Source: an uncultured Methanosarcinales archaeon
GTDB lineage: Archaea > Nanobdellota > Nanobdellia > Woesearchaeales > CAYMBN01
NCBI GenBank assembly: GCA_964388715.1
Contig: CAYMBN010000008.1
Coordinates: forward strand, 1-58,510
Reading direction: 5' to 3'
Length of the DNA: 58,510 bases
Below the pieces are notes generated by a model, which saw only the letters and a program-made list of their open reading frames with translations, was not told the origin of the DNA and ran no database searches. A program made the position numbers and the translations under genes. Below, piece after piece: positions 1-54,400 of the stretch; the first letter of the stretch is position 1, and each line of letters begins with the position of its first letter.

Positions 1-3000
1 ATTTCATCAATCTCATCACTCACAGTAGTAAACTTATCAACAGCATCATCAACAGTTACTTGTTCTTCTCCAAAAAGATTTTTAAGATCAATAAGAGCAA
101 GATCTAAATCACTTTGATCAGCAGCAACATCTCGAACATCTATCTGATTTAGGTTGATTTCATCTAAACTTTCATCCTTAATAGTATAAGTCTCATCCTC
201 ATTAAAATTTATATGATGTATATTCACATTTCCAAATCTTTCATCAAACTTTCCAAGCCCGTTAAGAAATTCTCCATTTAGCGCATGAATTGAATTTAAA
301 TTTTCATTTCCATCAAAATAGATTTTTTCTACATTCCCAACATCTTGAAGTCTTTCATCAAAATTTTCAATTCCTCTAAGCTCTCCTCCATCTGGAGCTG
401 AAATATAATATAAATTTCCACCTAAATCAAGTGATACTATATATATATTCTCAACACCATTAAGTATTGGTTTAAATTCACTAACTCCTTCAAGTATTTC
501 TCCCATAGGAGCTGCAATAATGTCTAAACTACCCTCTCTATAAATAAATACTATCCTTATATTCCCAACATCCTTAACTTCAGGAAATATATTTTCAACT
601 CCTATAAGCTCTTCTCCATCTGGAGCTTGAATCGCGTATATTGTTTTAGTATTATCATGAAGATACACATCATCAATATTCCCAACACCAGCCCCTTCAA
701 GAGCTGCTTTAGCTTCAGCTCTAGCTTCTTCATCAGTACCAATATATTCTGCAGCAATAACAGGATGAATAGCAGGTTTTCCTGCAGTAGGAATTAGATC
801 AATATCCAAATCACCAACAATTTCAGCAGGCACTTCTGGTTTCACAGCCTCAGGCACAGCTTCAACAGTTGCTGGTTTAGGTGCAACACCTGCTCTTGTA
901 GTAAAACCCCAACTAAAAATATCTCCTGTTGTGTATCTACCATCTGTAACCACAAGCTGCTCCACAACAACAACATATGAACTTTTAGTTTCTAACGGAA
1001 ACAATGGCTCAAAAGTTATCACATTATGTTTAGCATCGCGCACAATCCTACCAGGAACAGGTGGTCCATCTAATTGTTCAACATTTATATTAAATTTATC
1101 CAAAGATGTACCTGATGGTGTATCAAGTACAACTGAAATCCTAGAAGTAATTGCTATATCCCTTGCACCAGGAGAAGGCAATGCTAAAAGCACTTGTGGA
1201 GGTTTAACTTCTTTTTCTTCTGGAATTAATCCCCTTTCTTTATTTATTTTCTCTTGCCTTGATCTAAATATCTCATTAATTCTTCTTCTGAGATCACTTG
1301 TATCTTCATCAACAGGTTCTTCTTCTTCTACTTTACGAACAGGTTCTGGTAAAGATGCAACACCTGATTTTGTAGTAAAACCCCAACCATAAATTTCTCT
1401 TTTTGAATACGTACCAGATGCAGTCCTAACAATCTGCTCTAAAACAACAGTATATATACTTCCAGCTTCAAATGCAGACAATGGGGCAAAACTTATCACA
1501 TTATGTATTTGATCACGGGTAATTCTACCAGGAACAAGATCGCCATCTAATCTAACTTGAATATGTAATTTTTCAAGAGGCACGCCTGATCCTGAATCAA
1601 TTGTAGCACTAATACTAGACCTAAGAGCTATCTCATATGCACCAGGAGAAGGTAATGTTATTAATATATGACTTTGTTCTAGTAGTTTTTCTTCAACCTC
1701 TTCTCTTTCATCTACTTCTCTTCTTAATCTAATCATCTCAGCAAGCTCTTGAAGTCGATCCATCTCAGAACTTTCTTCTTCAACAGTAACAGCACCAGCA
1801 GACTTTTTCTCATTTATTCGCTTAATTGCATCTGTTGCAAGACTACCTTCATCATCATTATCATCAAAGTAATTAGCTAACTCATAATATTTAATAGCAT
1901 TACTATCTTGACCTTTTTTTTCATAAACCTCTCCAAGCATAAAATAAATATTCCATGATTCACTCTCATCAAACATACCTTCACACTCTTTTAAAAGTTC
2001 AAGAGCAAGATCATAATTTTCTTCTTTAATAAGAATTTCAGCATACTTTTCATGAGCAAGTATATGTGTTGGGTCTGCTTGCATTACCTTAAGAAGTGCA
2101 CTTTTTCCTCCTTTACGATTCCCCTCAGCATATCTAATTTTACCTGTTTGAAATAATCTTTCTATCTCTTCTGCAGAAAGTGTTTCTTCTTCTTCTTCTT
2201 CTTCAGCAGGTTCTTCTGTCTTTGCAGTAGGAGCTTCTAAAGGAGTATCAAATTCAATACTCTTCACTGTTTTTTTACTTTCATCAGTTACAGGCCACAC
2301 TTCAATATTAAATGTTGCTTTCTTCCCATAATGACCTTCAAAAGATATTGGAGTGATTACTGCCATTGATGATTGTGAACAAGTTTGAAAATTATTAGAT
2401 TTAACTTCTGTATCTCCAACACTAATCTTCCAAGAATATTTGACAATATTTCTCAGTTCACTAAATACATCAAAATTATTAACTATAAATTTAATTTTAT
2501 AATGGGGTGTACCAGTAAATGACCAACTGTTGCCAAATTCAGGTGCAAAGATAGATATATCTGGTAAAGGCATTTCTCCCTCAACCATAGCCCTATCAGC
2601 ATCCATTCCATCAACAACTTTTTGTACAACACCCAATTCTTTTCTTATCGCATCAAGATCTCCATTATGTTCTTCGTATAAATTTCGGGCATTATATGCA
2701 CCTCCAATATTGGGTATTGCCATTAAGTCTGTTGCTTCATCAAAATTACCATTTGTAGCTTCGTACAACATTCCAGCATACCAACTATTTACAACACCAG
2801 GAATTTCCATCCATTTTTTTGTTTTACCAAGCCTTCTTCCTGTAAGAATATATAAACTTGCAAGATAATATGTTTTTTCAGTATCTGGTATTTTCAATAT
2901 ATACTTTGCTGTTTTAGTATCTCCATTTGTAGCTTCATATAATTTTGAAGCATCTAATCCATTTCCAATACCATCTATCTTCATCCATTTTGTTGCTTCA

Positions 3001-3254
3001 TCAAACTCTCCTTTTGTAGCTGCGTATAATTTGTAAGCCCAAAATCCACTTCCAATATCAGGTATTGCCATCCATTCTCTCGCAATATCAATCCTCCCTT
3101 CTGTAACACCATATAAGTATCTATAATTACTTCCAATATCAGGTATTGCCAACCATTCATTTTTTGTTTCCTCATCCAAATCATCCCAATCTGTAAACGC
3201 TAAAACATTCCCTACCAAAACCAATACAAGTATCCAAATCATTATCTTTTTCAT
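1..3254 (-). CDS. Large secreted multidomain protein (>1080 aa, runs off window start): signal peptide, six ~29-aa HhH-like repeats, TPR region, two Ig-like (Big_5/SbsA-like) domains, ~38-aa repeats
   Basis: Manual translation from ATG at 3254 (overlaps TGA of upstream gene): MKKIMIWILVLVLVGNVLAFTDW..., open to position 1. Not in the ORF track because no stop codon is in the window. TPR-like YFMLGEVYEKKGQDSNAIKYYE; Ig domains begin LPSPGA and end WGFTT. Confidence 0.85.
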   Translation of the reverse strand, partial: MKKIMIWILVLVLVGNVLAFTDWDDLDEETKNEWLAIPDIGSNYRYLYGVTEGRIDIAREWMAIPDIGSGFWAYKLYAATKGEFDEATKWMKIDGIGNGLDASKLYEATNGDTKTAKYILKIPDTEKTYYLASLYILTGRRLGKTKKWMEIPGVVNSWYAGMLYEATNGNFDEATDLMAIPNIGGAYNARNLYEEHNGDLDAIRKELGVVQKVVDGMDADRAMVEGEMPLPDISIFAPEFGNSWSFTGTPHYKIKFIVNNFDVFSELRNIVKYSWKISVGDTEVKSNNFQTCSQSSMAVITPISFEGHYGKKATFNIEVWPVTDESKKTVKSIEFDTPLEAPTAKTEEPAEEEEEEETLSAEEIERLFQTGKIRYAEGNRKGGKSALLKVMQADPTHILAHEKYAEILIKEENYDLALELLKECEGMFDESESWNIYFMLGEVYEKKGQDSNAIKYYELANYFDDNDDEGSLATDAIKRINEKKSAGAVTVEEESSEMDRLQELAEMIRLRREVDEREEVEEKLLEQSHILITLPSPGAYEIALRSSISATIDSGSGVPLEKLHIQVRLDGDLVPGRITRDQIHNVISFAPLSAFEAGSIYTVVLEQIVRTASGTYSKREIYGWGFTTKSGVASLPEPVRKVEEEEPVDEDTSDLRRRINEIFRSRQEKINKERGLIPEEKEVKPPQVLLALPSPGARDIAITSRISVVLDTPSGTSLDKFNINVEQLDGPPVPGRIVRDAKHNVITFEPLFPLETKSSYVVVVEQLVVTDGRYTTGDIFSWGFTTRAGVAPKPATVEAVPEAVKPEVPAEIVGDLDIDLIPTAGKPAIHPVIAAEYIGTDEEARAEAKAALEGAGVGNIDDVYLHDNTKTIYAIQAPDGEELIGVENIFPEVKDVGNIRIVFIYREGSLDIIAAPMGEILEGVSEFKPILNGVENIYIVSLDLGGNLYYISAPDGGELRGIENFDERLQDVGNVEKIYFDGNENLNSIHALNGEFLNGLGKFDERFGNVNIHHINFNEDETYTIKDESLDEINLNQIDVRDVAADQSDLDLALIDLKNLFGEEQVTVDDAVDKFTTVSDEIDE

Positions 3255-5092: not shown

Positions 5093-5167
5093 AATAGTGT
5101 TAATTGTTTGGTTATTTATATAATTATTCAAAAAATATATAAACAAACTTCTTATCTTCACCATAAA

Positions 5168-5827
5168 ATGTTAGAAATACCAAAACATATTGCTGTTATT
5201 GTTGATGGTAACAGACGTTTTGCAAAAAAACACGGATTAAAACCATGGCAAGGACATGAAAAAGGAGCAGAAAAACTCAAACAAATGATTGAATGGGCAC
5301 AAGAACTTAACATCAAACAATTATCATTCTACACATTCTCAACAGAAAACTTCAAAAGAGACAAATTAGAGAAAGAATTCCTGTTCAAACTCTTTATAAA
5401 ATACTTCAACAAAATCAAAGATGATCCAAAACTAAAAGACACAAAAATCAATTTCTGCGGAAGACTTCACATGTTCCCAGACAATCTTCAACAATCAATG
5501 AAAGAATTAGCAGAAAAAACAAAAGACAACACTAAAATCACAATAAACTTTTGCATGGCATATGGTGGAAGAGCAGAAATAGTTGACGCATGCAAAAAAT
5601 GTCAAGAAATCACAGAAGAATCTATAACAAACAACCTCTACATCAAAGACGATGTTGACTTAATGATCAGAACAAGTGGAGAACTAAGATTAAGCAACTT
5701 CTTACTTTGGCAAAACGCTTATGCAGAATTCATTTTCCTAAAAAAATGTTTCCCAGAAATAGAAAAAGAGGATTTCTTAGACACAATCAAAACCTACCAA
5801 AACAGAGACAGAAGATTTGGAAATTAA
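5168..5827 (+). CDS. uppS: cis-prenyltransferase (undecaprenyl/polyprenyl diphosphate synthase)
   Basis: PKHIAVIVDGNRR, FSTENFKR, YGGRAEI, DLMIRTSGELRLSNFLLWQ, RRFG motifs. Confidence 0.96.
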   Translation: MLEIPKHIAVIVDGNRRFAKKHGLKPWQGHEKGAEKLKQMIEWAQELNIKQLSFYTFSTENFKRDKLEKEFLFKLFIKYFNKIKDDPKLKDTKINFCGRLHMFPDNLQQSMKELAEKTKDNTKITINFCMAYGGRAEIVDACKKCQEITEESITNNLYIKDDVDLMIRTSGELRLSNFLLWQNAYAEFIFLKKCFPEIEKEDFLDTIKTYQNRDRRFGN

Positions 5828-7707
5828 ACCTTCCGAGCAATCAAATAATCTGCAAATTCTATAAAAAACTGTTCACCATTCTTAGACAATTTAGCTTTCT
5901 TCAAAAACTTCTTTGACTCACTAACATACTTCTCAGCAATCTTCTGCACATAACTCACTGCACCTGTTGTATGCAAAACCTCAATAGTTAAGTCAAGATC
6001 TTTTCTAGAAACTTTTCTATTCCCTAAACACTTTAAAACATGTTTTTTCTGTTTAGCATTCCCAAGCTCCAAAGCTTTTATCACCAATAAAGTCTTTTTT
6101 CCATCCTTAATATCAGACCCAAGCTCATGCCCTTTACTTAAGTGCGGACTAATATCCATAATATCATCATACAACTGAAACGCAACAGCAACCAACTCAG
6201 CAAACTTACCAAGATACTCTAACTGTTTTTTCTTAGCATTCCCAAGCACAGCACCAATCAAAACACTTTCCTTAAACAAATTCCCAGTCTTCTTTTTAAT
6301 CATCTCAAAATATTCTCTTTCTCCAACCTTTTCCTTGATCTCAAAAAAAGTATCCATTGCTTGCCCATCATTAACAATCTTGTACGCTCTCTGATACAAT
6401 GAAAGTGCTCTATCCCCAGAACCGATCAAACATTTTGTACCTAGACTTTTCAAAATATTACCACAAACAACAGCAATTGTAACAGCAAACCGTGAAGATT
6501 TATCAGAAAACAAAGGCCCTTTGTAATGTTGCTCATGATAATTTTCAATAAAATACTCTTTTACCAACCGATGTATTGTTTTCTTATTTCTACGATAATC
6601 ATCTTCATCCATGATATCATCATGCACTAATGTAGACGAATGTAATAGTTCAACACTTAATGAAACAGGAATAATATTTTTTGACCGTTTTCCAGTCACA
6701 GAATTATAAGCCATTATCAGTGCAATCGGCCTTAACCTTTTTCCACCAGCCAAAACATTATCTATAATCAATTTATATTGATATCTAAGAAATTCATTAT
6801 CCAACTTCTCCAACTCTTTACTTAAAAACCTTTTCAACTCCCTATTAATCAAAGGTTGATAATATTCAATTGCTTGCTCAAACACAGAAGAATGTTTTTT
6901 CAAAGCTCTAACAACTTCCTCAATAATCCAATCAGGTGTTGAAGCTCCTGCAACAATCCCAACATGTTTTTTCTTTTTAATCCATTCCTTTCTAAGATCA
7001 CTCACAGTTTCAATATGTTTAGTATCAACATACCGTGAACAAAGTTGAGCAAGACGTTTTGTATTTGCACTATGATACCCACCAATAATAATCATAAGAT
7101 CAACTTCCTTAGCAAGTTTCTCAGCAGAACTCTGCCGTTCCCTTGTCGCAGCACAAATAGTATTATGAGGTTCAAAAGTTTCACAATGTTGACTTAATTC
7201 ATTAACAATAACATCAAACTTTTTCTGCACCTGAGTTGTTTGTGATACAACACCCAACTTTTCAAAAACACCTAACTTCTTAACATCCTCAACAGAATCA
7301 ACAACAATAGGATTTTCCAAATTCCCAGCAATACCTTTTACCTCAACATGCTTAGGATCACCAATTATAACAACCTGATACCCACGCTTCTCAAGATTCT
7401 TTGAAATATTATGCACTTTCTTAACAAAAGGACATGTTGCATCAGTAACCTTCTTAGATAATTTAGAAATCCTTTTATAAACATTATCAGCAATACCATG
7501 TGCAGTTATAATTATATTTTCATGTACAGGAACATCATCCAACTTTCTGATTATCTTAATCCCTCTCTGCTTTAACCGTTCAAGAACCTGTTTATTATGA
7601 ATCAACTGCCCAAAAACAGCAGCCTTACACTTAAGCCCATCAACAATATTAAGAGCTCTCTTTACCCCATAACAAAATCCAGTATTCTTTGCAATTGTAA
7701 TCTTCAT
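5824..7707 (-). CDS. ispH: Fusion: HMBPP reductase (IspH/LytB) + trans-polyprenyl diphosphate synthase
   Basis: N-terminal GFCYGVKRA, DATCPFV, TICAAT (three Fe-S Cys), SANT, GASTP; C-terminal GGKRLRP, HDDIMDEDDYRR, GQAMD, FQLYDDIMD, GKKTL. Confidence 0.93.
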   Translation of the reverse strand: MKITIAKNTGFCYGVKRALNIVDGLKCKAAVFGQLIHNKQVLERLKQRGIKIIRKLDDVPVHENIIITAHGIADNVYKRISKLSKKVTDATCPFVKKVHNISKNLEKRGYQVVIIGDPKHVEVKGIAGNLENPIVVDSVEDVKKLGVFEKLGVVSQTTQVQKKFDVIVNELSQHCETFEPHNTICAATRERQSSAEKLAKEVDLMIIIGGYHSANTKRLAQLCSRYVDTKHIETVSDLRKEWIKKKKHVGIVAGASTPDWIIEEVVRALKKHSSVFEQAIEYYQPLINRELKRFLSKELEKLDNEFLRYQYKLIIDNVLAGGKRLRPIALIMAYNSVTGKRSKNIIPVSLSVELLHSSTLVHDDIMDEDDYRRNKKTIHRLVKEYFIENYHEQHYKGPLFSDKSSRFAVTIAVVCGNILKSLGTKCLIGSGDRALSLYQRAYKIVNDGQAMDTFFEIKEKVGEREYFEMIKKKTGNLFKESVLIGAVLGNAKKKQLEYLGKFAELVAVAFQLYDDIMDISPHLSKGHELGSDIKDGKKTLLVIKALELGNAKQKKHVLKCLGNRKVSRKDLDLTIEVLHTTGAVSYVQKIAEKYVSESKKFLKKAKLSKNGEQFFIEFADYLIARKV

Positions 7708-8555
7708 TCTTTCAACTCTGTCTTAAAAACAAACTTAAACTCATCCTTAAACTCTTCATAAGCATTATCTAACTCCTCTTTGTTTTTAAAAACAGCAAAT
7801 AAAGTTGACCCAGAACCAGTCATAAGAACATTAAGTGAACCTATTCCTAACAAATTTTCTTTAATCTCTCTCAAACGTGGATATTTCTCAAAAACAAAAT
7901 CCTCAAAATCATTATGCATACTCTCTACAACACTTTTCAAATCATTCTGTTTAATTGCATCAATCATTTTCTGTGTTTCCTCAATCCTTTTCCCAGTCAT
8001 CCTTAAATTAAGAAGAGAATAAGCTTCTTTTGTTGAAACACCAAATTCAGGAGTAACAATCAAAACATAACCACTATCTAGTCCAGGCTTAACTTCATAA
8101 ACCAATTCTTTTGATTCAGTATCAAACACACTCCCATTAAAAAAGAAAAATCCAACATCCATCCCAATCTCTTTACTCAATCTAACCAACTCTTCCCTAG
8201 ACAAATTCAACCCCCACAACTCATTCAAAATCATAAACATTGTTGCTGCATTACTTGATCCACCTGCAAGTCCAGCTTTAATAGGAATATTTTTTTCAAT
8301 CTCAATCCTAACATTCTTTTCAATATTAAACCTTTCCTTCACCAACATAACAACTTTCATAACCAAGTTTGACTCATCCAAAGGCATTTCTTTATTACTA
8401 CAAATCAATTCAGTCTCTTCACTCTCACTAACCTTAATCACATCATAAAGATTAATCCGTTGCTTAATTATATTAAGAAGATGATAATCATTAGGAAGTT
8501 TCCTAATTATATCAAGTGCCAACGTAATCCGTGCATATGATTTTTTTGTGATCAT
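7704..8555 (-). CDS. ispE: 4-diphosphocytidyl-2-C-methyl-D-erythritol kinase
   Basis: GHMP kinase motifs KNIPIKAGLAGGSSNAA, NDFE, MTGSGST; MEP operon context. Confidence 0.92.
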   Translation of the reverse strand: MITKKSYARITLALDIIRKLPNDYHLLNIIKQRINLYDVIKVSESEETELICSNKEMPLDESNLVMKVVMLVKERFNIEKNVRIEIEKNIPIKAGLAGGSSNAATMFMILNELWGLNLSREELVRLSKEIGMDVGFFFFNGSVFDTESKELVYEVKPGLDSGYVLIVTPEFGVSTKEAYSLLNLRMTGKRIEETQKMIDAIKQNDLKSVVESMHNDFEDFVFEKYPRLREIKENLLGIGSLNVLMTGSGSTLFAVFKNKEELDNAYEEFKDEFKFVFKTELKE

Positions 8556-9064
8556 TTTTTTAATTCTTCAATTTCTTTAATTAATTTTTTTAATCTGGGC
8601 AATGCTTTTTCTATTGCTTTAATCTTTTCTGGATGATCTTTCCTTTTTTCTTCAATACCACTTATTCTTTCTTCAAAGGATGCAATTGTTCCATTAGGTA
8701 AAACCATCATGTCTGAATAGGAAATTATTTTTTGCTCAATTGTTTTTGGAACCATGCTTGGTTCATTGGAAAGTTCTGCACTATTAAAATGGCCAATGAT
8801 CATTTTTCCAATTTCCTCTTCACCTATACTTTTTAGAAATTTATAACCCACTATAGAATGTGGTTCACCTATTTCCCTGCCAATATCATGGAGTAATCCA
8901 GCAATTTTTATTTTTTCAGGATCTAATTTTAATTCGGGATGTTTTTTGTTGATTTGTAAAGCTGTTTCATAAGCTACTTTAGAAACACTAATAGAATGTT
9001 TAATTCTATTTTTATTCTTTAACTTACTTTTCAATAATTCCTCTGCTTGTTTGTAGGTTAACAT
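8552..9064 (-). CDS. HD-domain (HDIG) phosphohydrolase
   Basis: H...IAGLLHDIGR...H...H...IISYSD motifs. Confidence 0.88.
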   Translation of the reverse strand: MLTYKQAEELLKSKLKNKNRIKHSISVSKVAYETALQINKKHPELKLDPEKIKIAGLLHDIGREIGEPHSIVGYKFLKSIGEEEIGKMIIGHFNSAELSNEPSMVPKTIEQKIISYSDMMVLPNGTIASFEERISGIEEKRKDHPEKIKAIEKALPRLKKLIKEIEELKK

Positions 9065-9540
9065 TTTATCAAACTCACAATACTAAACACCTGTATTCCT
9101 TTTCCTTGCCCAAAAACAGTTAATCCTTCGCCTGTTGTTGCTGTTATACCAATCTGATCAACCTTAATATTCAAAAGACCAGCCAAATTCTTTTTCATAT
9201 CATCAACATACGGTTCAATCTTAGGAGTTTTACATTCAATTGCAATCGAAAGATTACCTACTCTAAACCCTTTCTCTGAAAGCATTTTATTCAAAGTTTC
9301 AAAAAACCTTTTTGAATCCTGACCAACCTTATCCAGATCAGTATCAGGGTGATAATGTCCAAGACTTTTATTACCAAGTGCAGAACTAACTGCATTAAAT
9401 ATAGAATGAATAATCAAATCCCCATCACTATGAGACATAATTCCAACATGATCCTTAATAATCTTCCCTCCTAAAACTAATGGCTTACCTTCACTCTCCT
9501 CAAACATATGCGAATCATGACCAATACCTATTTTATACAT
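9058..9540 (-). CDS. ispF: 2-C-methyl-D-erythritol 2,4-cyclodiphosphate synthase
   Basis: IGIGHDSH, HSDGDLIIHS, ITATTGEGL motifs; start at ATG 9540 after a GGGGG Shine-Dalgarno-like site. Confidence 0.95.
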   Translation of the reverse strand: MYKIGIGHDSHMFEESEGKPLVLGGKIIKDHVGIMSHSDGDLIIHSIFNAVSSALGNKSLGHYHPDTDLDKVGQDSKRFFETLNKMLSEKGFRVGNLSIAIECKTPKIEPYVDDMKKNLAGLLNIKVDQIGITATTGEGLTVFGQGKGIQVFSIVSLIKC

Positions 9541-9586
9541 ATTATTTACCCCCAAATAAGTGATTTCTTTTGTCCATATATAAATT

Positions 9587-10726
9587 TTATCTCCCTAAAT
9601 CAAGCACTAGCTCTGGTTTTAATGCTTTTAAATACATTTTATGTGGACTATAACTAACCAAACGTGATGGATTCAATCTCCTTAAAGGTTCAAGAAAACA
9701 TTCCAATAACAAATTTTTTGCCTGATTAGGATGTTCATATCTTTGAGAAAGTTTATTTTGAAGATCAACAGCTAAAACTTTAACATTAAAATCACTCATA
9801 CTTATATAACTTGAAGCTTGACATTCTTCTCCAAGATAGACTAATAATTCCATACATTCTAACAAGTCAGATTCTTCTGTTATTTCCTTTGATGCCAGAT
9901 AGGAAAATCTTTCTCTTGCTAATTTTATTTGCATTTTTGAATCTTCAACAAGTTTTTTAATTATTGCATTTGATTTAGATACTTTACTCAATATTGATGA
10001 ATCACTATCTAAATCATCTCCTAATTTATTTAAGGAATACCTCTCTTTTAAAGGTAATAAGGATTCTTCACCAAATAAATGTTGTTGCATAAAAAGTGTA
10101 AATGATTCATTTAAAACCTTAAGATAAAAAATTTGTGAAGAACTAAATTTACTTGGATTTGTTATAAAAATATCTGAATAAGTATTAGATTCATTTTTTT
10201 TAATTAAAAGATTAAATAACACATGTATTCCTTCATGATAAATACCTTCTTCAATTTTAAAAGGAGATTCTCTATCAAGAATAATCCAATGTTTATCATT
10301 AAAATAAAAATATTCTGTACAAGCTTCAAGTTCACAAAATTCTACTTGTTCTGGTTTTAGCATACTAAAGTCAGAATCTTTAAATCCTAATAAATTGTAA
10401 GCCATTCTAATAAAATTTGTTAAAATTTGAAAATAATCAGTAAATCTTATTGAGTTTCTAGGTAATAAATTTTTATAATATTTAAACATCCAATTTTCAC
10501 CATATATATCATGAAAAAAAGTATAGACCTCTCTAAATAATTTATCTTCTTTAGCTAATTTATAAAAAAGTGCTCTAGTTTCATCTGGAACAAAATAAGT
10601 TTTCATAAAATTTTCTAATGCCTTAGGATAATCCATTAAATCTTCACTAATAAATCTATCTTCTCGACGCTTATTTTCTTCAATAATTTCAATAATCCGT
10701 TCAACACTAAGAACTTCATCACTCAT
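9587..10726 (-). CDS. Hypothetical protein with HExxH (possible zinc metallopeptidase)
   Basis: 379-aa ORF overlapping the ispD stop; YHEGIH plus downstream VLNESFT. Confidence 0.6.
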   Translation of the reverse strand: MSDEVLSVERIIEIIEENKRREDRFISEDLMDYPKALENFMKTYFVPDETRALFYKLAKEDKLFREVYTFFHDIYGENWMFKYYKNLLPRNSIRFTDYFQILTNFIRMAYNLLGFKDSDFSMLKPEQVEFCELEACTEYFYFNDKHWIILDRESPFKIEEGIYHEGIHVLFNLLIKKNESNTYSDIFITNPSKFSSSQIFYLKVLNESFTLFMQQHLFGEESLLPLKERYSLNKLGDDLDSDSSILSKVSKSNAIIKKLVEDSKMQIKLARERFSYLASKEITEESDLLECMELLVYLGEECQASSYISMSDFNVKVLAVDLQNKLSQRYEHPNQAKNLLLECFLEPLRRLNPSRLVSYSPHKMYLKALKPELVLDLGR

Positions 10727-11387
10727 CTTTCTGCCTAAACAACTCTCTCACAATCGCCAAATCACTCTTCACAGTAACCTTCATGTTAATATAATCACCT
10801 GGTACAACCTTGACTTTGTGACCATTCATTGCAACAATCTCACTATCATCAGTTGCAACAAAATACTTATCATTAATAGCCTTCTCAAAACAACTCAAAA
10901 GAATCTCTCGTTTAAACCCTTGCGGTGTCTGTGCAATCCAAGTTGTTTTCCTTGCCAAAGATCTTTGTATCATCATATCATCCTCAGCATATTTTATAGT
11001 TGCAACAGGTGGCACAGCAGTCATTGCAGCACCATTCTCTTCAACAGCTTTAATCAAATCCTGGATCAACCAAACAGGAGTCAGTGGCCTAGCACCATCA
11101 TGTGTAATAACAACATCACCACTACAACTCTTAACTCCATTCAAAACAGACTCAATCCTGTTACCACCACCTTCAACAACCTTAACCTTCAACCCATTCT
11201 CAGAAAACAATTTTTCATAAAACTCAATATCCTTCCTCTGCGTTGCAACAACAATCTCATCAACATTTGCTTTAGAAAACTGTTCCAACGTCCTTACAAT
11301 AAGCATCTTCCCACCAATATCAGAAAGTAACTTATTCTCACCAAACCTTGTTGAACAACCAGCTGCAGTTATAACCACTGATATCAT
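10719..11387 (-). CDS. ispD: 2-C-methyl-D-erythritol 4-phosphate cytidylyltransferase
   Basis: AAGCSTRFG-NK, GGNRIESV, HDGARP, AQTPQGF, TDDSE, NMKVT motifs. Confidence 0.94.
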   Translation of the reverse strand: MISVVITAAGCSTRFGENKLLSDIGGKMLIVRTLEQFSKANVDEIVVATQRKDIEFYEKLFSENGLKVKVVEGGGNRIESVLNGVKSCSGDVVITHDGARPLTPVWLIQDLIKAVEENGAAMTAVPPVATIKYAEDDMMIQRSLARKTTWIAQTPQGFKREILLSCFEKAINDKYFVATDDSEIVAMNGHKVKVVPGDYINMKVTVKSDLAIVRELFRQKDE

Positions 11388-12505
11388 AACAATCCCTCCG
11401 CTGTTTTCCTAGCCTTTTTCTCAGCTTCAATTATATCATTCACATTAGGATTTTCAATATTTTCACTCATCTCAATTGTTTTCCCAATTATCTTTCCAAT
11501 ATCCATAAAACCAATCTTACCTTCAATAAAAGCCCTAACAGCAACATGATCAGCACCATGCACAACAGCAGGCATCACTCCACCATGTTCTAAAGCAATA
11601 TGCCCTAAACTTAAACATGGAAACTTATCAAAAGGTGGTTTCTCAAACCTTAAAGTCCTATCATACAAACTTACAAAATCAGAAACAGTAGCTTTAACCC
11701 TTTCAGGATAAAACAATGCATACTGTGTGTAACGTTTCATATCAGGTGTACCTAATTCAGTAATAATACTCCCATCCTGAAACTCAACAAGTGAATGACA
11801 AATATAATCAGGATGCACAACAACCTTTATCTGTTCAGACTTAACACCAAACAAATGTTTTGCTTCAATAACCTCAAACACTTTATTCATACATGTTGCA
11901 CTATCAACACTAATCTTAGTCCCCATATTCCAAGCAGGCCTATCAAGAATATCTTTCATTGTAACCTTCTTCAACTCATCACTACTCATCTCAGCAATCT
12001 TACCTTTTCCCATTGTCAAATACAAATTTCTAATCTCATGTTTTTTACCAGACTTTAATGATTGAAACAATGCAGAATGTTCAGAATCAATTGGAATAAT
12101 ATCAACACCTTTTTCCCGAGCCTTTTGCATAACAATCTCTCCAGCTAAAACTAATGTTTCTTTATTTGCTAAACCAACTGTAATCCCCTTATCAATCGCA
12201 TCTAAAGTCGGCAACAATCCAGACGCTCCAACAACAGAATTAATCAACAAATCACCACTAACAACTTTTCGCAAACCATCAACACCTTTATACACAGTAA
12301 CATCACAATCTAAACTACCAGCTTTTTCTTCATCAACAACACAAACAGCTTCTGGCTTAAACTCATCAATCTGTTGTTTTAACTTTTCAATATTAGTATT
12401 AGCTGATAACCCTACAACCTTAAACTTATCAGGATGCGCTCTAATAATATCTAATGTCTGCGTTCCAATTGATCCTGTTGACCCTAAAATACAAACTTTC
12501 CTCAA
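11384..12505 (-). CDS. dxr: 1-deoxy-D-xylulose 5-phosphate reductoisomerase
   Basis: ILGSTGSIGTQTL, LANKE, PIDSEHSALFQ, WNMGTKISVDSAT, PDM motifs. Confidence 0.96.
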   Translation of the reverse strand: MRKVCILGSTGSIGTQTLDIIRAHPDKFKVVGLSANTNIEKLKQQIDEFKPEAVCVVDEEKAGSLDCDVTVYKGVDGLRKVVSGDLLINSVVGASGLLPTLDAIDKGITVGLANKETLVLAGEIVMQKAREKGVDIIPIDSEHSALFQSLKSGKKHEIRNLYLTMGKGKIAEMSSDELKKVTMKDILDRPAWNMGTKISVDSATCMNKVFEVIEAKHLFGVKSEQIKVVVHPDYICHSLVEFQDGSIITELGTPDMKRYTQYALFYPERVKATVSDFVSLYDRTLRFEKPPFDKFPCLSLGHIALEHGGVMPAVVHGADHVAVRAFIEGKIGFMDIGKIIGKTIEMSENIENPNVNDIIEAEKKARKTAEGLL

Positions 12506-13551
12506 AATCTTCGAACCTCCTTAATCAAATCATCAACAATCTTATACTTTCTAGCTCTTGCAATTGTTTTCTCAACCTTTTTAATGATTCTACCTTTCTT
12601 ATACATTAAAATAAACTTATCACTTCCAACCAAAGCCAGGTCAGCTTTCTTTGCTTCACCAGGACCATTCACAATACAACCCATCACAGCAATCTTCAAC
12701 GGTTTCCTAATATTCAATGACTCAAGTTTTTTAGAAATTCCAACAACATCAATCCCATGCCTTGCACAAGTTGGACACGAAATAATCATTACACCATTCT
12801 TTCTTAACCCTAATGACTTAAGAATTTCATACCCAGCCTTAACTTCATCAACAGGATCAGAACTTAACGAAACACGAACAGTATTCCCAATCCCTTTACT
12901 CAAAAGAATCCCAAACGCAGCAGCAGTCTTTATATTCCCTGTAAAACAACCACCAGCTTCAGTCACACCAAGATGAACAGGATAATTAAACTTTTTTACA
13001 AACAACTCATTTGCTTTCACAGTATTTTTCACATCACTTGCTTTCAAAGAAACAATTATATCATAAAATCCATGCTTTTCCAAAATCTTAATATGTCTTT
13101 CTGCACTCTTAACCATTGCTTTAGGAGTCAAACCATACTTACGAACAAAACTCTTTTCCAAAGATCCAAGATTAATCCCTATTCTAATTGGTATACCACA
13201 ATCTTTAGCAGCTTTAACAACAGCTTTAATCTTATCTTCATTCCCAATATTCCCAGGATTAATCCGCAACTTATCAACATAAGGAGCAGCCATCACAGCC
13301 AATTTATAATCAAAATGAATATCAGCAACAAGCGGAATCTTAATATTCTTCTTAATAACCTTCAAAGCTTCTGCACTCTTTACATCAGGCACACTAACTC
13401 TAACAATCTCACAACCAACCCTCTCAAGCTCATGAATCTGCCTAATAGTAGCTTTAATATCAGAAGTCTTAGTATTACACATACTCTGAACACTAATAGG
13501 ATTATTCCCACCTATCTTTACAGACCCTACACTAACTACTTTGGTTTTCAT
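12502..13551 (-). CDS. ispG: HMBPP synthase (IspG/GcpE)
   Basis: VQSM, PLVADIHFD, RINPGNIG, HLGVTEAG, SCPTCAR, AVMGCIVNGPGEA. Confidence 0.96.
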   Translation of the reverse strand: MKTKVVSVGSVKIGGNNPISVQSMCNTKTSDIKATIRQIHELERVGCEIVRVSVPDVKSAEALKVIKKNIKIPLVADIHFDYKLAVMAAPYVDKLRINPGNIGNEDKIKAVVKAAKDCGIPIRIGINLGSLEKSFVRKYGLTPKAMVKSAERHIKILEKHGFYDIIVSLKASDVKNTVKANELFVKKFNYPVHLGVTEAGGCFTGNIKTAAAFGILLSKGIGNTVRVSLSSDPVDEVKAGYEILKSLGLRKNGVMIISCPTCARHGIDVVGISKKLESLNIRKPLKIAVMGCIVNGPGEAKKADLALVGSDKFILMYKKGRIIKKVEKTIARARKYKIVDDLIKEVRRF

Positions 13552-25203: not shown

Positions 25204-26565
25204 ATGGTACTTGACAAATTAGGTGATTCATTAAAGAACACATTAAGCAAGATAACCAAAGCAATCTTTGTAGATGAATCTCTAGTTAACGAACTAATCA
25301 AAGAGATCCAAAGAGCCTTACTCCAAAGCGATGTTAATGTAAAACTTGTCTTTGAATTAACTACTGAAATCAAAAAACGTATTCTTAAAGATGAAACACC
25401 ACCAGGATTAACAAAAAAAGAATATTTGATCAAAGTTGTCTATGATGAACTCACAAAATTCTTAGGTGAAACAGCTCATGATATTAAAACAGACAAAAAA
25501 CCAACAAAAATCATGCTTGTTGGCTTATTTGGTTCAGGTAAAACAACCACAATAGGTAAATTAGGTAAATTCTTCCAAAAAAGAGGATTCAAAGTAGCAC
25601 TAATGTCAACAGATACATGGCGTCCTGCAGCTTATGACCAACTAAAACAATTAGGAAAAAAGATTAACCTGCCAGTTTTTGGCAATAAAAAACAAAAAGA
25701 TCCTGTTAAAATCTACCAAGAATTCAAAGAAGAACTAAAAAAATATGATCTATTATTATTTGACACAGCAGGTCGTGATGCATTATCAGATGACTTAATT
25801 GAAGAACTTAACAATATAAACAAAACAATCAAACCAGATGAAACACTTTTAGTGCTAAGCGGAGACATTGGCCAAGCAGCACAAACACAAGCACAAGCAT
25901 TCCATGATACATGTAATGTAACAGGAGTTATAATCACAAAACTTGACGGTACTGCAAAAGGTGGTGGTGCACTTTCAGCATGTGCAATCACAAACGCACC
26001 AGTCAAATTCATTGGTGTTGGAGAAAAGATTGACGATCTTGAACAATTCCATCCTCCAAGATTTGTTGGAAGAATGCTTGGCATGGGTGACATTGAAACA
26101 TTACTAGAAAAAGCAAAAGAAGCAATCCCACAAGAAAAAGCAGAAGACCTTGGTAAGAAATTCTTAAAAGGAAAATTCAATCTTATTGATCTTTACGAAC
26201 AAATGCAAGCAATGAGCAAAATGGGTCCATTAGGTAAAGTAATGGAAATGGTTCCAGGTTTTTCACAATTAAAATTACCTAAAGACATGCTTAAAGTACA
26301 AGAAGACAAACTAAAAAAATGGAGATTTATGATGAACTCTTGTACTAAAGAAGAACTTGAAGATCCTGACATTATTTCTGCACAAAGAATTGACAGAATC
26401 TCAAAAGGCGCTGGTGTTAAAACAAGTGAAGTAAGAGAACTTATTAAACAATACAGACAAAGTAAAAAAATGGTTAAAATGCTTGGCGGCGGCAGTGGAA
26501 ACGTCAAAAACATGGAAAAGATGATGAAGAAAATGCAGAAAGGCGGCCAAGTTCGATTTAAATAA
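25204..26565 (+). CDS. srp54: Signal recognition particle protein SRP54
   Basis: GLFGSGKTTT, DTWRPAAYDQL, DTAGR, TKLDGTAKGGGALS, Met-rich M domain. Confidence 0.97.
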   Translation: MVLDKLGDSLKNTLSKITKAIFVDESLVNELIKEIQRALLQSDVNVKLVFELTTEIKKRILKDETPPGLTKKEYLIKVVYDELTKFLGETAHDIKTDKKPTKIMLVGLFGSGKTTTIGKLGKFFQKRGFKVALMSTDTWRPAAYDQLKQLGKKINLPVFGNKKQKDPVKIYQEFKEELKKYDLLLFDTAGRDALSDDLIEELNNINKTIKPDETLLVLSGDIGQAAQTQAQAFHDTCNVTGVIITKLDGTAKGGGALSACAITNAPVKFIGVGEKIDDLEQFHPPRFVGRMLGMGDIETLLEKAKEAIPQEKAEDLGKKFLKGKFNLIDLYEQMQAMSKMGPLGKVMEMVPGFSQLKLPKDMLKVQEDKLKKWRFMMNSCTKEELEDPDIISAQRIDRISKGAGVKTSEVRELIKQYRQSKKMVKMLGGGSGNVKNMEKMMKKMQKGGQVRFK

Positions 26566-27546: not shown

Positions 27547-27720
27547 ATGAAAAACAAACCTAAACTACCAAAAGGAGAAATCCTACCAAAGATAGATAAA
27601 GTTGAGCACATGAAAAGAAAACAATATCTTAAATATTATATTGAAGTTCTTGAAGAAAACATAAAAGAAGCAAAAGACATTCTTAAGCAGAAAAAGAAAG
27701 AATTAAAAAAGTTGAAATAA
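27547..27720 (+). CDS. Small basic coiled-coil protein (57 aa)
   Basis: Manual translation MKNKPKLPKGEILPKIDKVEHMKRKQYLKYYIEVLEENIKEAKDILKQKKKELKKLK; TATA (TTTATATA) about 30 nt upstream. Confidence 0.6.
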   Translation: MKNKPKLPKGEILPKIDKVEHMKRKQYLKYYIEVLEENIKEAKDILKQKKKELKKLK

Positions 27721-27764
27721 AAAAACAACATGTTTAAATATAAGTTATCCTTATTACTTTCTCT

Positions 27765-28083
27765 ACGAGGACAATTTGGTTGCTCTTGAAAAGAGTTTGA
27801 TCATAAAGCCACTTTCAAGTGGACGAAAATTAGTACGGTGACTGGACATATCTCACTGTGCGAAAATCCACGCTTGTTAAGCTGAATTATGATTGAGAAG
27901 AATTGTTTTTAAAATGTGCCAAAGGATCTATATCAGATTGGCTTAAACATTTAAGACTTTTTTTCACCGAGTCCAGACTCAGAGCGAGGTAATTCAGGAT
28001 AATAAATCTTCGGATTTACTCACAAACAAGCGGTCTTCGGATTTAATGTTTGGTTCTGAACCTAGATGCTCTGTTTTTCTTTT
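27765..28083 (+). ncRNA. Candidate ~310-nt structured non-coding RNA
   Basis: TATA box at 27733, many complementary segments, two C(UUCG)G loops, terminal U-tract, no ORF. Confidence 0.65.
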
Positions 28084-28140
28084 AACTCTTATTATAAAAC
28101 AGTAAACATTTTAAATAAAACCCTATTATCAACCATTAAA

Positions 28141-29175
28141 ATGTATCATTGTGTTATAATGGCAGGAGGCTCTGGCCAACGATTCTGGCCAATGAGCAGA
28201 AAAAATAAACCAAAACAATGTCTTAAACTAAGTAGAGATAAATCCATGATGCAAATTACAGTTGAACGATTAAAACCATTATTCAAAAACAACATTTACA
28301 TTGAAACAAGCCAACTTCTTGAACAACATATCAAAAAAGATACACCAGACATAAATTATATAATTGAACCAGCTGCAAAAAACACAGCACCTTGCATTGG
28401 TCTAGCAACAATCTCTCTCCTACACAAAGACCCTAATGCAGTCATTTTCATAGAAACAACAGACCATATCTACAATGACGAAAAAAAATATTTAGAATAT
28501 ATTCAAAAAGCACTAAAAAGAGCAGAAAACAGTGATGAAATAATTGTCATGGGCATTAAACCAACTCATGCTCACACTGGTTTAGGTTATATTGAACAAG
28601 GAGAACAACTTGACAGCGAAATCTATAAAGTACAATCATTCAAAGAAAAACCAGATCTACAAACAGCAGAAACATTCCTCAAATCAGGAAAATATTTCTG
28701 GAACTCAGGCATGTACATCTTTAAAGCATCTGTCATGCTTGATGCAATAAAACAACACATGCCAGAACTCCACCAAGCCCTAATCAAAATCAAAGAATCA
28801 AACCTAAACCCAGACACAATTAAAGAAGTTTTCAACTCACTTCCAGAACAATCATGCATACAAATTGATTATGGTATTAGTGAAAAAGCATCTAACATGA
28901 CATTAATAACAGCAGACATGCACTGGGATGATATTGGTGACTGGCATGCAATGGAAAGACTATTTCAACCAGACAAAGATGGAAACATCATAAAAGCAAA
29001 ACACATTGCTATTGACACAAAAGATTCAATCATTTTCAGTAAAAAACTAGTCACAACAATGGGTGTAAAAGATCTTGTAATAATTGACACAAAAGATGCT
29101 TTATTAGTTACTGATAAGAAAAGAGCACAAGAGTTAAAGAAGGTTTATGAGAAGTTAGATGAAAAGTACAAGTAA
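28141..29175 (+). CDS. manC: Mannose-1-phosphate guanylyltransferase
   Basis: IMAGGSGQRFWPMSRKNKPKQ, EPAAKNTAPCI, FKEKP, WNSGMY, IDYGISEK, WDDIGDW. Confidence 0.93.
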   Translation: MYHCVIMAGGSGQRFWPMSRKNKPKQCLKLSRDKSMMQITVERLKPLFKNNIYIETSQLLEQHIKKDTPDINYIIEPAAKNTAPCIGLATISLLHKDPNAVIFIETTDHIYNDEKKYLEYIQKALKRAENSDEIIVMGIKPTHAHTGLGYIEQGEQLDSEIYKVQSFKEKPDLQTAETFLKSGKYFWNSGMYIFKASVMLDAIKQHMPELHQALIKIKESNLNPDTIKEVFNSLPEQSCIQIDYGISEKASNMTLITADMHWDDIGDWHAMERLFQPDKDGNIIKAKHIAIDTKDSIIFSKKLVTTMGVKDLVIIDTKDALLVTDKKRAQELKKVYEKLDEKYK

Positions 29176-41191: not shown

Positions 41192-41290
41192 GCGGTGATA
41201 GTCTAATGGCTAGGATCGTACCCTGCCACGGTATGGATGCGGGTTCGAGTTGAAGCGAAAATTCGTTTCACGAAAGTCCCGCTCGCCGCA
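41192..41290 (+). tRNA. tRNA-Gly(GCC) with T-loop BHB intron (59/60: 41250-41276)
   Basis: Acceptor GCGGTGA/TCGCCGC-A, anticodon loop CT-GCC-AC, T stem GCGGG/CCCGC. Confidence 0.92.
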
Positions 41291-41292
41291 TT

Positions 41293-41415
41293 GGGCCTGT
41301 AGCTTAGTCTGGAGCTTTCCAGTAAAGCAGACAATTGGAGCGCTGCTCTTATATGACAGTGTTTCATACAATCTAAGTAAAGCAGTGGTCGTGAGTTCAA
41401 ATCTCATCAGGCCCA
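41293..41415 (+). tRNA. tRNA-Ile(TAT) with two BHB introns (D-loop: 41313-41334; 37/38: 41354-41379)
   Basis: Acceptor GGGCCTG/CAGGCCC-A, anticodon stem CTGCT/AGCAG, loop CT-TAT-A^A, T arm GTGAG-TTCAAAT-CTCAT. Confidence 0.88.
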
Positions 41416-51441: not shown

Positions 51442-54400
51442 ATGAACTTAAAAAGGCAACTTTTGGCATTGTACACCATACTTTTAATAGTTTTAATGCC
51501 AGTAAATATTTCTGCTACTGATAATGCACCTGATGTAACAATAACTTCTAGTGCAACAACAACTTACGTTAACAAAGATTTTACTTTAACAATTAAAGGA
51601 ACAGACGATGTTGGTCTAGACCTGATTGCATATAAAGAAGAAAATGAAGAAGACTGGCACAGATTTAATTGTGATAATTCAACTAAATGTGAGGAAAATG
51701 TAACATTAAGTATGGATCAAGTTGGTCTTTACCGTTTTGTTGGCGCTGCTAAAGATGTTATAAATCAAAAAGCAAGTGACAGTGTTTTCATTTCAGTCTT
51801 ACAAAACAACCCACCTCAAATATCTTCACCTAATCCAGAACAAATAGTTGATATTGATGAAGGTTCTTCACAAGGTTTTAGTGCAACTATCACAAACTCT
51901 GAAGATGATTATGGAGAAATACTTGATTATGAATGGAAACTAGATAACCAAATTGTTAGTGATGGAGAAATCTCAAGCGGAATTCTATTTTATCTTTACA
52001 CTCAAGATGATTATGATGAAGCAACAAGAACACATGAACCAACCCATACATTATCATTAACAGCTACAGATGAAGCAGATCAAATAGCATCTTATCAATG
52101 GAACATAACAATCAAAAATGTCAACAGAAAACCAACTTTAGATTATGTTGAATTACCAAATACAGATAAGTACACAGATGATGAAATAACATGTACTGTT
52201 TATGGTGCAGAAGATCTTGACAATGATCCAATTACTTATCGTTATTCCTGGAAAAGTAACGGTGGAATCTATCCAATAAGACATGAAGAAAAAACATCAA
52301 ACACAGATACTCTTGACTGTGGAATAACACAACACTGTGATAAAGATGACTTAATCAGTTGTGAAGTAGAATTAGTTGATACTCAAACAGTAAGTGAAAC
52401 AAAGATTGACAGTTTAACAATCCTAAACACTGCTCCTGAATTTACAAGCGTCGCTTTAACACCAGAACAACCTCAAAAAGAAGATATGTTAATATGTACT
52501 GCAGATGGTTTCTCAGATGCAGATAATGATGCAGAACAATTTAGATTTACATGGAAAAGTGATGATGATCAAATTAAACAAATTACAAAAACAAGTAATG
52601 TTGACTCAATAAGTTGTGAAACAGAATCTTTATGTGAAAAAAATAAAATAATTACTTGTGATGTTGAAGCTTATGATGGAGAAGATTATAGTAATATAAT
52701 TAGTAATAATAAGGAAATTCAAAACACAATACCTTCTTTCAACACAACTCACATTACTCAAGAAGTTTACACAGATACTTTAATTGAATGTACTGCTACA
52801 GGTTGGACAGATCCAGATGCAAATGATTTTGCAAAATATGATTGGATATGGTTTATTAACGGAAACATAACACAAACAGAACAAGACTCAACATCCTCAA
52901 CATTAAATTGTGACACAGTTACTGGCTGTGAAAAAGATAAACAAGTAACATGTGAAGCAACACCAAAAGATGATGATTCAGCAGGAATTCCAAAATCAAG
53001 TAATATCACAGTACAAAACACAATCCCAACAATTGACTCAGTTTCAATAACAGATCCAGCAGATAAAACAACAGAAATAATTGCAACTCCAATTGGCTGG
53101 AATGACCCAGATGAAAATGATGATCCAATCTATCAATATAAATGGTCAAGAAATGATGCTGGACTAGGATTTGGTCCTAACTCTGCAACTTATTCTGGTG
53201 ATAAAATAAGAGGAGATATAATTAAAGTAAGAGTCACTCCTTATGATGATACTGTTGGTTATAACACTCATTCAAAAAAACATGTAGAAGTAACAATCAC
53301 AAACGCAAATCCAGTTATCTCAGATGTAACAATCACACCAGAAAACGCTTACACAAATTCAACATTAACAGGTTCTGGAACTTTCTTTGATCCAGACACA
53401 GTTGACTTTGACGATGCAGAACAAGGTTCAACTTACAAATGGTTTGTAAACAACGAACTTGTTGGAACAAACAAAAACCTAACACCAGACTTATTCAACA
53501 AACACGATAATATTACTTTTGAATACACACCAATGGACAACCTAAGTTTAGCAGGAGACCCTGTAAACTCAACCCCAATCACAATCTCAAACACACCACC
53601 TGTATTCACAGATATCTCAGTTACCCAAAATGTTTACACAAATGATATCATAACATGTACACCTTCAGGTTTCAGTGACATTGACAATGATGCAGAGAAT
53701 TATACTTATGAATGGAGAATTGATGAAGAAATTGTTGAAGGACAAACTTCAAACACTTTTGACTGTTCAGTTGAAGGATGCGACAGAGACAAACCAATAG
53801 ATTGTTATGCAACTGCTGTTGATGATAATAATGCATTAGGAAATACTCTTGTTGCAAGTACTACAATACTTAACACTGCTCCAGAAGTAACAAATGTTCA
53901 CATTGAACCAGCACAACCATACACAACAGACAAACTAGAATGTGTTTACGATTTTAGCGATGCAGACAATAATGTAGAAGATGGTTCAACTTACAGATGG
54001 TTTAAGAACCAAGCTTTAACAGGATTAACAACTAAAGAAATTTCAAGTTCAAATTCAATCAAACATGAAACATGGTCATGCGAAACTACTCCTAATGATG
54101 GAACTAATGAAGGAATCCCAATTAATTCAACAAATACAACAATAAAAAACACACCACCAGAAATAACCAACATTGCAATCACTCCAGAAATTGCTTATAC
54201 AAATACTACATTAATAACAGAACTTGGTTATTTTGATGCTGATAATGACGTTGAAGGTGGCTCTATACTTGAATGGTTTGTAAATGATATTCTTGTTGGA
54301 GGCGCTAACACACCAGTACTTTCTTATGAAAATTTTAGTAAGGGAGATATTGTAAAATTTGTTTATAATGTTCATGATGAAGAAGAATTTGGAGTTTCAG

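Follow-up and report, generated by a model that had tools for sequence, protein, structure and literature searches.

A candidate stand-alone gene for a large two-domain structured RNA in Woesearchaeota

Few conserved structured RNAs exceed about 300 nt, and where their function is known they are in many cases ribozymes or the cores of essential particles. To our knowledge, those known from archaea are rRNA, RNase P RNA and SRP RNA. The window analysed here, by which we mean the whole stretch of 58,510 nucleotides, holds a tract between SRP54 and a mannose-1-phosphate guanylyltransferase-like gene for which a sequence-only reading had proposed a separate, structured, non-coding RNA of about 310 nt on the + strand. 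Is there such an RNA gene and, if so, what kind of RNA does it specify? The proposal is upheld by the analysis described below, at a length of about 315 nt and with a homolog at locus L008, in a second genome, that carries compensatory pair changes. With somewhat more confidence than doubt, we take the tract to be a gene standing by itself, whose structured, non-coding product acts in trans, has two domains and about 315 nt, and belongs to a family that is absent from Rfam 15 and found in at least two Woesearchaeota. The full-text literature, as searched with subscription journals and supplements outside its scope, yielded no description of such an RNA.

The RNA gene and its surroundings

The RNA site lies in a region of about 30-35% G+C. 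SRP54, at 25204-26565 on the + strand, has its closest relatives (57-75% identity) in MAGs mostly titled Woesearchaeota or Nanoarchaeota, with many others under the title 'uncultured Methanosarcinales archaeon', which makes the host a DPANN archaeon. L001, L006, L024 and about 25 further loci, whose SRP54 is 62-71% identical to that of the window, carry the titles 'uncultured Methanosarcinales archaeon', 'Candidatus Nomurabacteria bacterium' or 'Candidatus Aminicenantes bacterium', and these contigs are probably mislabelled or mis-binned Woesearchaeota DNA.

The genes around the RNA are ordinary chromosomal genes. Upstream the order is an XPD-type helicase, DUF1189, SRP54, a 187-aa ORF, an 81-aa HTH protein and a 57-aa ORF, the 187-aa and 57-aa ORFs between SRP54 and the RNA matching no family; downstream lie the mannose-1-phosphate guanylyltransferase-like gene, ManC (ATG at 28144), DUF1003, a small exporter and PAP2. 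Pfam scans of the window's larger ORFs revealed no reverse transcriptase, transposase, integrase or cas gene. The candidate 57-aa ORF just upstream of the RNA (27547-27720) is lysine-rich, has no Pfam family and is absent from L008; a TATA-like TTTATATA stands about 30 nt ahead of its ATG.

The gene itself is delimited by the following features.

27765..28083, + strand: predicted transcript of about 319 nt with two domains, placed from the lack of an ORF, the fold z-score and the homology to L008, which starts at 27765
27733..27740, + strand: TATA box (TTTAAATA) of the RNA gene, recognised from the sequence, with a predicted start at about 27763-27767
28074..28083, + strand: oligo-T tract T5CT4 (TTTTTCTTTT), recognised from the sequence, a probable archaeal terminator

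The TATA box and the U-rich end that had been claimed for this gene are both present, TTTAAATA at 27733-40 and TTTTTCTTTT at 28074-83, and the tract indeed lacks an ORF, none of 40 aa or more lying within 27765-28065. Oligo-T is a termination signal for the archaeal RNA polymerase. Taken by itself the TTTAAATA octamer does not exceed chance, with 19 copies in the window against 16.2 expected. It also occurs at 28110 and 29178, 34-35 nt ahead of the ATGs of the next two + strand genes (28144 and 29213), and it is from this spacing that the start of the RNA is put near 27765-27767. In L008 an A/T-rich TATA-like box precedes the homology start at the same distance as in the window. Since the copy at 28110-17 lies 34 nt ahead of its ATG, ManC would have its own promoter. 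A TATA box at 27733, an oligo-T tract at 28074-83 and a separate TATA box for ManC together point to a separate transcription unit for the RNA.

The folding energy bears on the strand. Folded as 319 nt, the + strand reaches -85 kcal/mol, with a z-score of -2.85 and one of 100 shuffles equally good, against a z-score of -1.02 for the - strand, where 13 of 100 shuffles do as well. Each domain also folds well alone, the 5′ domain with a z-score of -3.52 (0 of 200 shuffles equally good) and the 3′ domain with -3.34 (1 of 200). The G.U pairs, which can form on the + strand only and make up 8 of the 98 cells of the fitted window/L008 alignment described below, fix the strand as +, in agreement with the energies and with the strand first proposed.

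Some other parts of the window deserve mention in their own right. A complete-looking bacterial-type MEP/DOXP isoprenoid cluster occupies 5108-13551 in this archaeon: it comprises IspH fused to a polyprenyl synthase (5824-7707), a GHMP kinase (IspE-like), an HD protein, IspF, a 379-aa ORF without a family, IspD, Dxr and IspG, and is adjoined by an undecaprenyl-diphosphate synthase. At 41293-41415 Rfam places a tRNA (49 bits) with two insertions, one in the D-loop region (29 nt) and one behind the anticodon loop (27 nt); ARAGORN finds no tRNA in the whole window, and by eye 41200-41292 is like the 3′ part of another tRNA with a T-loop insertion. Open-ended, surface-protein-like ORFs stand at the two margins, one of at least 1084 aa with a Big_5 domain (3-3254) and one of at least 2356 aa with MBG, YDG and PKD-like domains (51442-58509).

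A second copy and the four-way junction of the 5′ domain

Relatives were sought at 80 loci, about 70 of them archaeal, that were drawn from a genome collection by a scan for SRP54 with 6-kb flanks. With the window RNA as query, nhmmer found a single place among the 80 loci, L008 7688-7904 (E 6.9e-6). The copy there spans about 7698-7906 on a Woesearchaeota MAG contig that ends inside the RNA, for which reason the 5′ domain alone is comparable. A covariance model built from the window sequence only, with the structure of 27765-27979, recovered L008 over its full length (1-215) at 80.1 bits (E 4.4e-15), and the next matches scored no higher than 17 bits (E 0.33 or worse) in the 760 kb searched; this amount comprises 70 loci and the window, the 10 bacterial-type loci having been left out of the covariance-model searches. 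Matches at L057, L045 and two other sites in the window (E 0.33-9.2) were considered as homologs and taken as chance. Neither a two-sequence covariance model nor a covariance model of the 3′ domain found a copy beyond L008 in the 70 loci, so that 69 of the 70 show no copy of the RNA within 6 kb of SRP54. A two-sequence profile in nhmmer and motif scans likewise returned L008 only from all 80 SRP54 loci, and the 10-nt core of an invariant block at 27963-77 occurs in one of the 80, again L008. The phage and plasmid collections gave no match to the window RNA, and there is no second copy or repeat of it elsewhere in the window. The RNA family occurs, on sequence similarity, in at least two Woesearchaeota (DPANN archaea), with one of the copies cut by a contig end.

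In L008 a divergently oriented phosphoesterase gene lies upstream of the RNA copy, which also speaks for a separate transcription unit. About 750 nt upstream of that copy there is also a 298-aa ORF (6047-6943, - strand) with a weak match to the C-terminal part of the RNA ligase RtcB (E 8.3e-7), for which the window has no counterpart. Near another SRP54, in the Nanoarchaeota MAG of L045, Rfam matches an RT-16 RNA at 10079-10217 (99.6 bits, E 1.6e-14), about 2.7 kb downstream of the protein gene.

Although they are only two, the sequences are informative about structure. RNAalifold applied to a plain MAFFT alignment of the window RNA and L008 predicts 44 pairs, 13 of them compensatory on both sides. 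In the model-fitted alignment there are 51 pairs and 98 cells, 99% of which are paired; 14 of the 51 pairs have changed on both sides and are still paired, and there are 21 further pair types. Pair counts from a fitted alignment lean towards the structure to which it was fitted, and the RNAalifold result, which used MAFFT only, agrees with them. When the 3′ partners were slid by 1-3 columns as a control, 35-46% of cells could pair and 0-2 pairs had changed on both sides. The covariation check comes from one homolog, L008, and the 14 doubly changed pairs of the 5′ domain bear out the structure of that domain given below. Identity between the two copies is 61% in paired columns and 64% in unpaired columns. 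The invariant stretches are the hairpin-A loop, AGCC, GAAA, the first six bases of the hairpin-C loop, UUAAGCU and the 15-nt block at 27963-77. The elements of the domain are as follows.

27769..27780, + strand: 5′ strand of the closing helix H1 (GGAC, a 3-nt AAU bulge, UUGGU), from RNAalifold on the MAFFT alignment and from the MFE fold
27783..27795, + strand: hairpin A, with a short stem and an invariant loop of GAAA type, UGAAAAG; in L008 both sides have changed at 2 of its 4 pairs
27800..27893, + strand: long arm E-F-C, made of helices E and F and hairpin C, with large internal loops that hold the invariant AGCC, GAAA and UUAAGCU
27800-06/27887-93, + strand: helix E, with 2 compensatory pairs
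27819-23/27867-71, + strand: helix F, partly kept in L008 (3 of 5 pairs aligned)
27833-41/27853-61, + strand: hairpin C, with 4 compensatory pairs and an 11-nt loop at 27842-52 (CUGGAC...)
27895..27965, + strand: long hairpin D, whose tip is variable; its 3 helices comprise 21 pairs, of which 6 have changed on both sides, and it was found independently by RNAalifold
27963..27977, + strand: 15-nt block identical in both species, containing the 3′ strand of H1 (27966-74) and GUCCAG (27971-76), the candidate partner of the hairpin-C loop

Comparison of the two species shows the 5′ domain (27765-27975), as far as pairing can be read from sequence, to be a four-way junction in which a bulged closing helix surrounds a GAAA-loop hairpin and two long arms; the stems covary between the species, and the loops and the 15-nt linker are invariant. 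The inner part of the closing helix (27776-80/27966-70) has all five pairs in both species, with one change from U-G to C-G. Its possible extension across the AAU bulge, where 27769-72 could pair with 27971-74, is without covariation support.

Most of the helices drawn in the sequence-only reading reappear in this structure. That at 27833-41/27853-61 and the arm in which AAATGT/ACATTT encloses GCCAA/TTGGC are both in the MFE fold and are kept in L008 with compensatory changes. The helix placed at 27798-806/27887-95 survives in the shorter form 27800-06/27887-93, which is in the MFE fold and compensatory in L008. An outer helix at 27767-77/27900-10 had also been proposed and is contradicted, because 27895-27965 is taken up by hairpin D in both species; the 5′ end pairs instead with 27966-74.

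The 3′ domain and long-range contacts

The remainder of the RNA is described from the window sequence, with the following predicted elements.

27980..28073, + strand: 3′ domain, a three-way junction in which the MFE and centroid structures coincide (-28.2 kcal/mol), from thermodynamics only
27980-86/28067-73, 27987-90/28060-63, AAU bulge and 27994-28000/28053-59, + strand: 3′ closing stack in the MFE fold
28003-18, + strand: 3′ hairpin 1, with 6 bp and cUUCGg, in the MFE fold
28023-52, + strand: 3′ hairpin 2, tipped by cUUCGg and interrupted by the 3x3 internal loop AGC/UAA, in the MFE fold

The 3′ domain is accordingly predicted to be a three-way junction with two cUUCGg hairpins. The MFE fold reproduces the helices previously put at 27980-85/28068-73 and 27993-99/28054-60, and it contains both of the C(UUCG)G hairpins that had been pointed out. 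The two domains are closed in the same manner, at 27769-27780 and 27987-28000, by four pairs, an AAU bulge and a helix that starts with U, and the 5′ end of L008 also carries this closing element. This shared element may be a repeated protein-binding or tertiary motif.

Two pseudoknots had been suggested, and they fare differently. For the first, between CUGGAC in the hairpin-C loop (27842-47) and GUCCAG in the linker (27971-76), both halves are invariant in L008, which speaks for the contact; it lacks covariation and has a competing nested helix. Two differences in L008 beside the loop hexamer would extend the pairing to 8 bp, which is not covariation; we regard this extension as suggestive support at the sequence level. 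The competitor arises from GUCC at 27971-74, which can also pair with the 5′ GGAC (GGAU in L008) and is paired in that way by preference in both the MFE and the RNAalifold structures. The two pairings would be mutually exclusive, and the RNA may alternate between them. The second pseudoknot (27871-78/28025-32) is a perfect 8-mer complement and is at chance level, complements of 8 bp or more being found in 67% of 200 dinucleotide shuffles. An equally long alternative complement exists at 27882-89/27990-97, and the second pseudoknot would undo the lower stem of hairpin 2; we do not retain it.

These elements suggest how the RNA might be organised. The invariant loop CUGGAC at the end of arm C would dock on GUCCAG, the invariant linker immediately downstream of the closing helix, and so lock the arm onto the junction. 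Such a loop-linker contact would compact the four-way junction, and it may alternate with the 5′ GGAC:GUCC pairing. The 3′ three-way junction would close the molecule and protect its 3′ end beside the oligo-T terminator.

Known RNA families and the nature of the RNA

At gathering scores Rfam 15 (4227 families) recognises a single tRNA and nothing else in the whole window. With the threshold relaxed to E<=10, the region 27650-28200 gives three chance matches only, to SNORD-like and dfrA-dnaX models (15.9-21.8 bits, E 3.9-8.7), and a scan of the whole window at E<=5 adds nothing relevant; a check against Rfam therefore returns no family at gathering scores and none that is credible at E<=10. The breadth of the comparison is two sequences, one of them cut by a contig end, and absence from Rfam is compatible with an extremely diverged housekeeping RNA. 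The RNase P and SRP helix-8 signatures had been reported as absent, and motif scans, which did no better than on shuffled sequence, confirm this for consensus motifs taken from the Rfam alignments of E. coli rnpB and ffs. The covariance models of OLE, ROOL, GOLLD, HEARO and raiA, families that we take to be included in Rfam 15, gave no match to the window RNA through Rfam.

The leading rival explanation is that the RNA is the remodelled SRP (7S) RNA of this lineage, with the 3′ junction as S domain and the 5′ domain in place of the Alu domain. Both copies lie downstream of SRP54 on the same strand, at 1.2 kb in the window and 3.1 kb in L008, and a tblastx comparison of the window with the L008 locus finds that, besides the RNA, SRP54 alone is common to both. 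This proximity is the only functional lead that the sequences offer, and a weak one: placement at random would be expected to put about one extra copy near SRP54 in a sample of 70 loci. Archaeal 7S RNA is about 300 nt long, a size that fits, and the order of helices in the 3′ domain (closing stack, hairpin, hairpin with a symmetric internal loop), which comes from thermodynamics alone, mimics h5/h6/h8. Neither the window nor 22 Woesearchaeota SRP54 loci (287 kb altogether) yielded a canonical SRP RNA, which is a weak argument from small genome samples, and the RNA-binding motif of SRP54 is somewhat diverged across the lineage. However, the helix-8 signature is missing: AGCA occurs nowhere in the window RNA, there is no exact AGCAGC, and the best matches to GGUCAGG and GGAAnnnAGCAGC have 2-3 mismatches and are equalled in 48-100% of shuffles, L008 likewise doing no better than shuffles for the helix-8 motif. 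The internal loop is AGC/UAA with a UUCG tip instead of a GNAR tip, no Rfam SRP model (Archaea_SRP and its clan) matches even at E<=10, a long rod like helix 5 is lacking, the two ends of the molecule do not pair with each other, and the 5′ domain, with its four-way junction and some 210 nt, greatly exceeds an Alu domain in size. On this evidence we consider a remodelled SRP RNA distinctly unlikely. As to SRP54 itself, its RNA-binding motif (window 26340-26380, in the M domain) has D or E in 62 of 67 archaeal-type loci at a position that is K or R in the SRP54 of P. furiosus and M. jannaschii, the preceding Ser being variable; bacterial loci are likewise not basic at this position, so the argument from divergence is weak.

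It is also conceivable that the RNA acts in cis, as a leader or riboswitch of ManC and the envelope-sugar genes that follow, the 3′ domain and oligo-T tract serving as a conditional terminator. The RNA does lie 60 nt upstream of ManC on the same strand, it ends in a stem and then a U-tract, and two alternative 8-bp pairings join the 5′ and 3′ domains. Yet those 8-bp complements are at chance level, and the oligo-T tract at 28074-83 is followed by the TTTAAATA box at 28110-17, 34 nt ahead of the ManC ATG and spaced as at the next gene, which would suggest a leaderless mRNA. A length of 315 nt is, moreover, unusually large for an aptamer plus platform. We rate this explanation as very unlikely.

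A highly diverged RNase P RNA has still less to commend it and appears highly improbable. According to the review PMC6380272, RNase P proteins are encoded in every archaeal genome that it examined, and DPANN lack the protein-only form; given this, an RNA subunit of such a size is expected somewhere in the genome. In the window RNA several helices meet in a junction, one loop is of GNRA type, and GUCC takes part in a candidate long-range pairing. The conserved motifs, however, are at shuffle level throughout: for CR-I the best match in the window RNA has 3 of 11 mismatches (equalled by 23% of shuffles) and for CR-V 4 mismatches among 12 specified positions (63%), L008 being worse for both, and CR-II, CR-III and CR-IV do no better than shuffles in either RNA. 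No Rfam RNase P model (archaeal, type T, bacterial A/B or nuclear) matches at E<=10. The ends of the RNA form no P1, as 27966-74 is the partner of the 5′ end and the 3′ domain follows beyond that helix; the candidate pairing is without a bulged U and sits in a hairpin loop; and the helix order P1-P2-P3-P4 fits nowhere. A circularly permuted RNase P, compared by eye with the consensus, was rejected, its motifs not being conserved in L008 and Rfam giving nothing. The same holds for H/ACA or C/D guide RNAs, K-turns and a core like that of the cobalamin riboswitch, which were compared in the same way; the template repeat of a diversity-generating retroelement was set aside since its second copy is missing from the window.

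An origin in a mobile element or virus, or from a group I-like intron that survives as a detached remnant, is equally hard to credit. One stretch of the window RNA loosely resembles the R element of group I introns, but L008 does not conserve it. Between SRP54 and the RNA the two genomes carry completely different genes, and for most of the genes scanned there Pfam gives no family. PMC6125680 reports that the rRNA of Woesearchaeota commonly contains group I introns and that Rfam RF00028 found 0 of 39 archaeal introns, so that introns of this type would be invisible to that model; RF00028 does not match the window RNA, a result to be read with its failure on the archaeal introns of PMC6125680 in mind. 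Against such an origin, there is no host gene or exon context: the RNA stands between a TATA box and an oligo-T tract, and neither flank carries an rRNA, a tRNA or a split ORF. Genes for an integrase, a reverse transcriptase or a homing endonuclease are absent from the neighbourhood, and the window holds no repeat copies, nor do the phage and plasmid collections hold a match.

We return, then, to a stand-alone gene for a trans-acting structured RNA. The RNA would most likely be the folded core of an RNA-protein particle, or a ribozyme-like RNA, rather than a regulator of the next gene. Its role as a trans-acting particle core we infer from the anatomy of the predicted fold, and its ribozyme-like character is speculation. 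A folded RNA gene of 315 nt is probably important, since it has been kept in very small DPANN genomes. A bolder proposition, tentative and on the unlikely side, is that the RNA represents a new large archaeal class, be it a new ribozyme or a particle core that Woesearchaeota have retained in their reduced genomes, or else the lineage's SRP RNA rebuilt without a helix-8 motif that is universal elsewhere. Were it a new class, it would be a candidate for new RNA biochemistry; were it SRP or RNase P RNA in remodelled form, it would be an exception to a motif regarded as universal. The case also shows that scans with family libraries leave real structured RNAs unannotated in DPANN lineages.

Set beside known systems, the RNA comes close to several and coincides with none. 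It is like archaeal SRP (7S) RNA in its length, in having a gene of its own that is bounded by a promoter and an oligo-T tract, in lying close to SRP54 in the window as well as in L008, and in a predicted 3′ three-way junction of h5/h6/h8 order; it is unlike it in having no helix-8 motif, GNAR loops, long helix 5, paired ends or Rfam score, and in the large four-way junction of its 5′ domain. With the archaeal RNase P RNAs (types A, M and T) it shares length, multi-helix junctions, a GNRA-type loop, a candidate long-range pairing and, presumably, bound protein, whereas CR-I to CR-V, the P1 or P4 arrangement and an Rfam score are all lacking. The group I introns of Woesearchaeota rRNA (IA3 and IB4, as described in PMC6125680) resemble it in lineage, in a size range of 203-392 nt, in a multi-domain fold that is pseudoknotted in the introns and possibly so here, and in the blindness of the general Rfam model; in contrast, the window RNA is not inserted in a gene, P1/P10 exon pairing is not possible, and no conserved R/S-like elements are common to it and L008. 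The orphan bacterial ncRNAs, of which OLE, ROOL, GOLLD and raiA are examples, differ from the window RNA in that it is archaeal (DPANN), has two copies so far and shows no similarity to them in Rfam; what it has in common with them is a large, ornate and conserved fold that was discovered from sequence.
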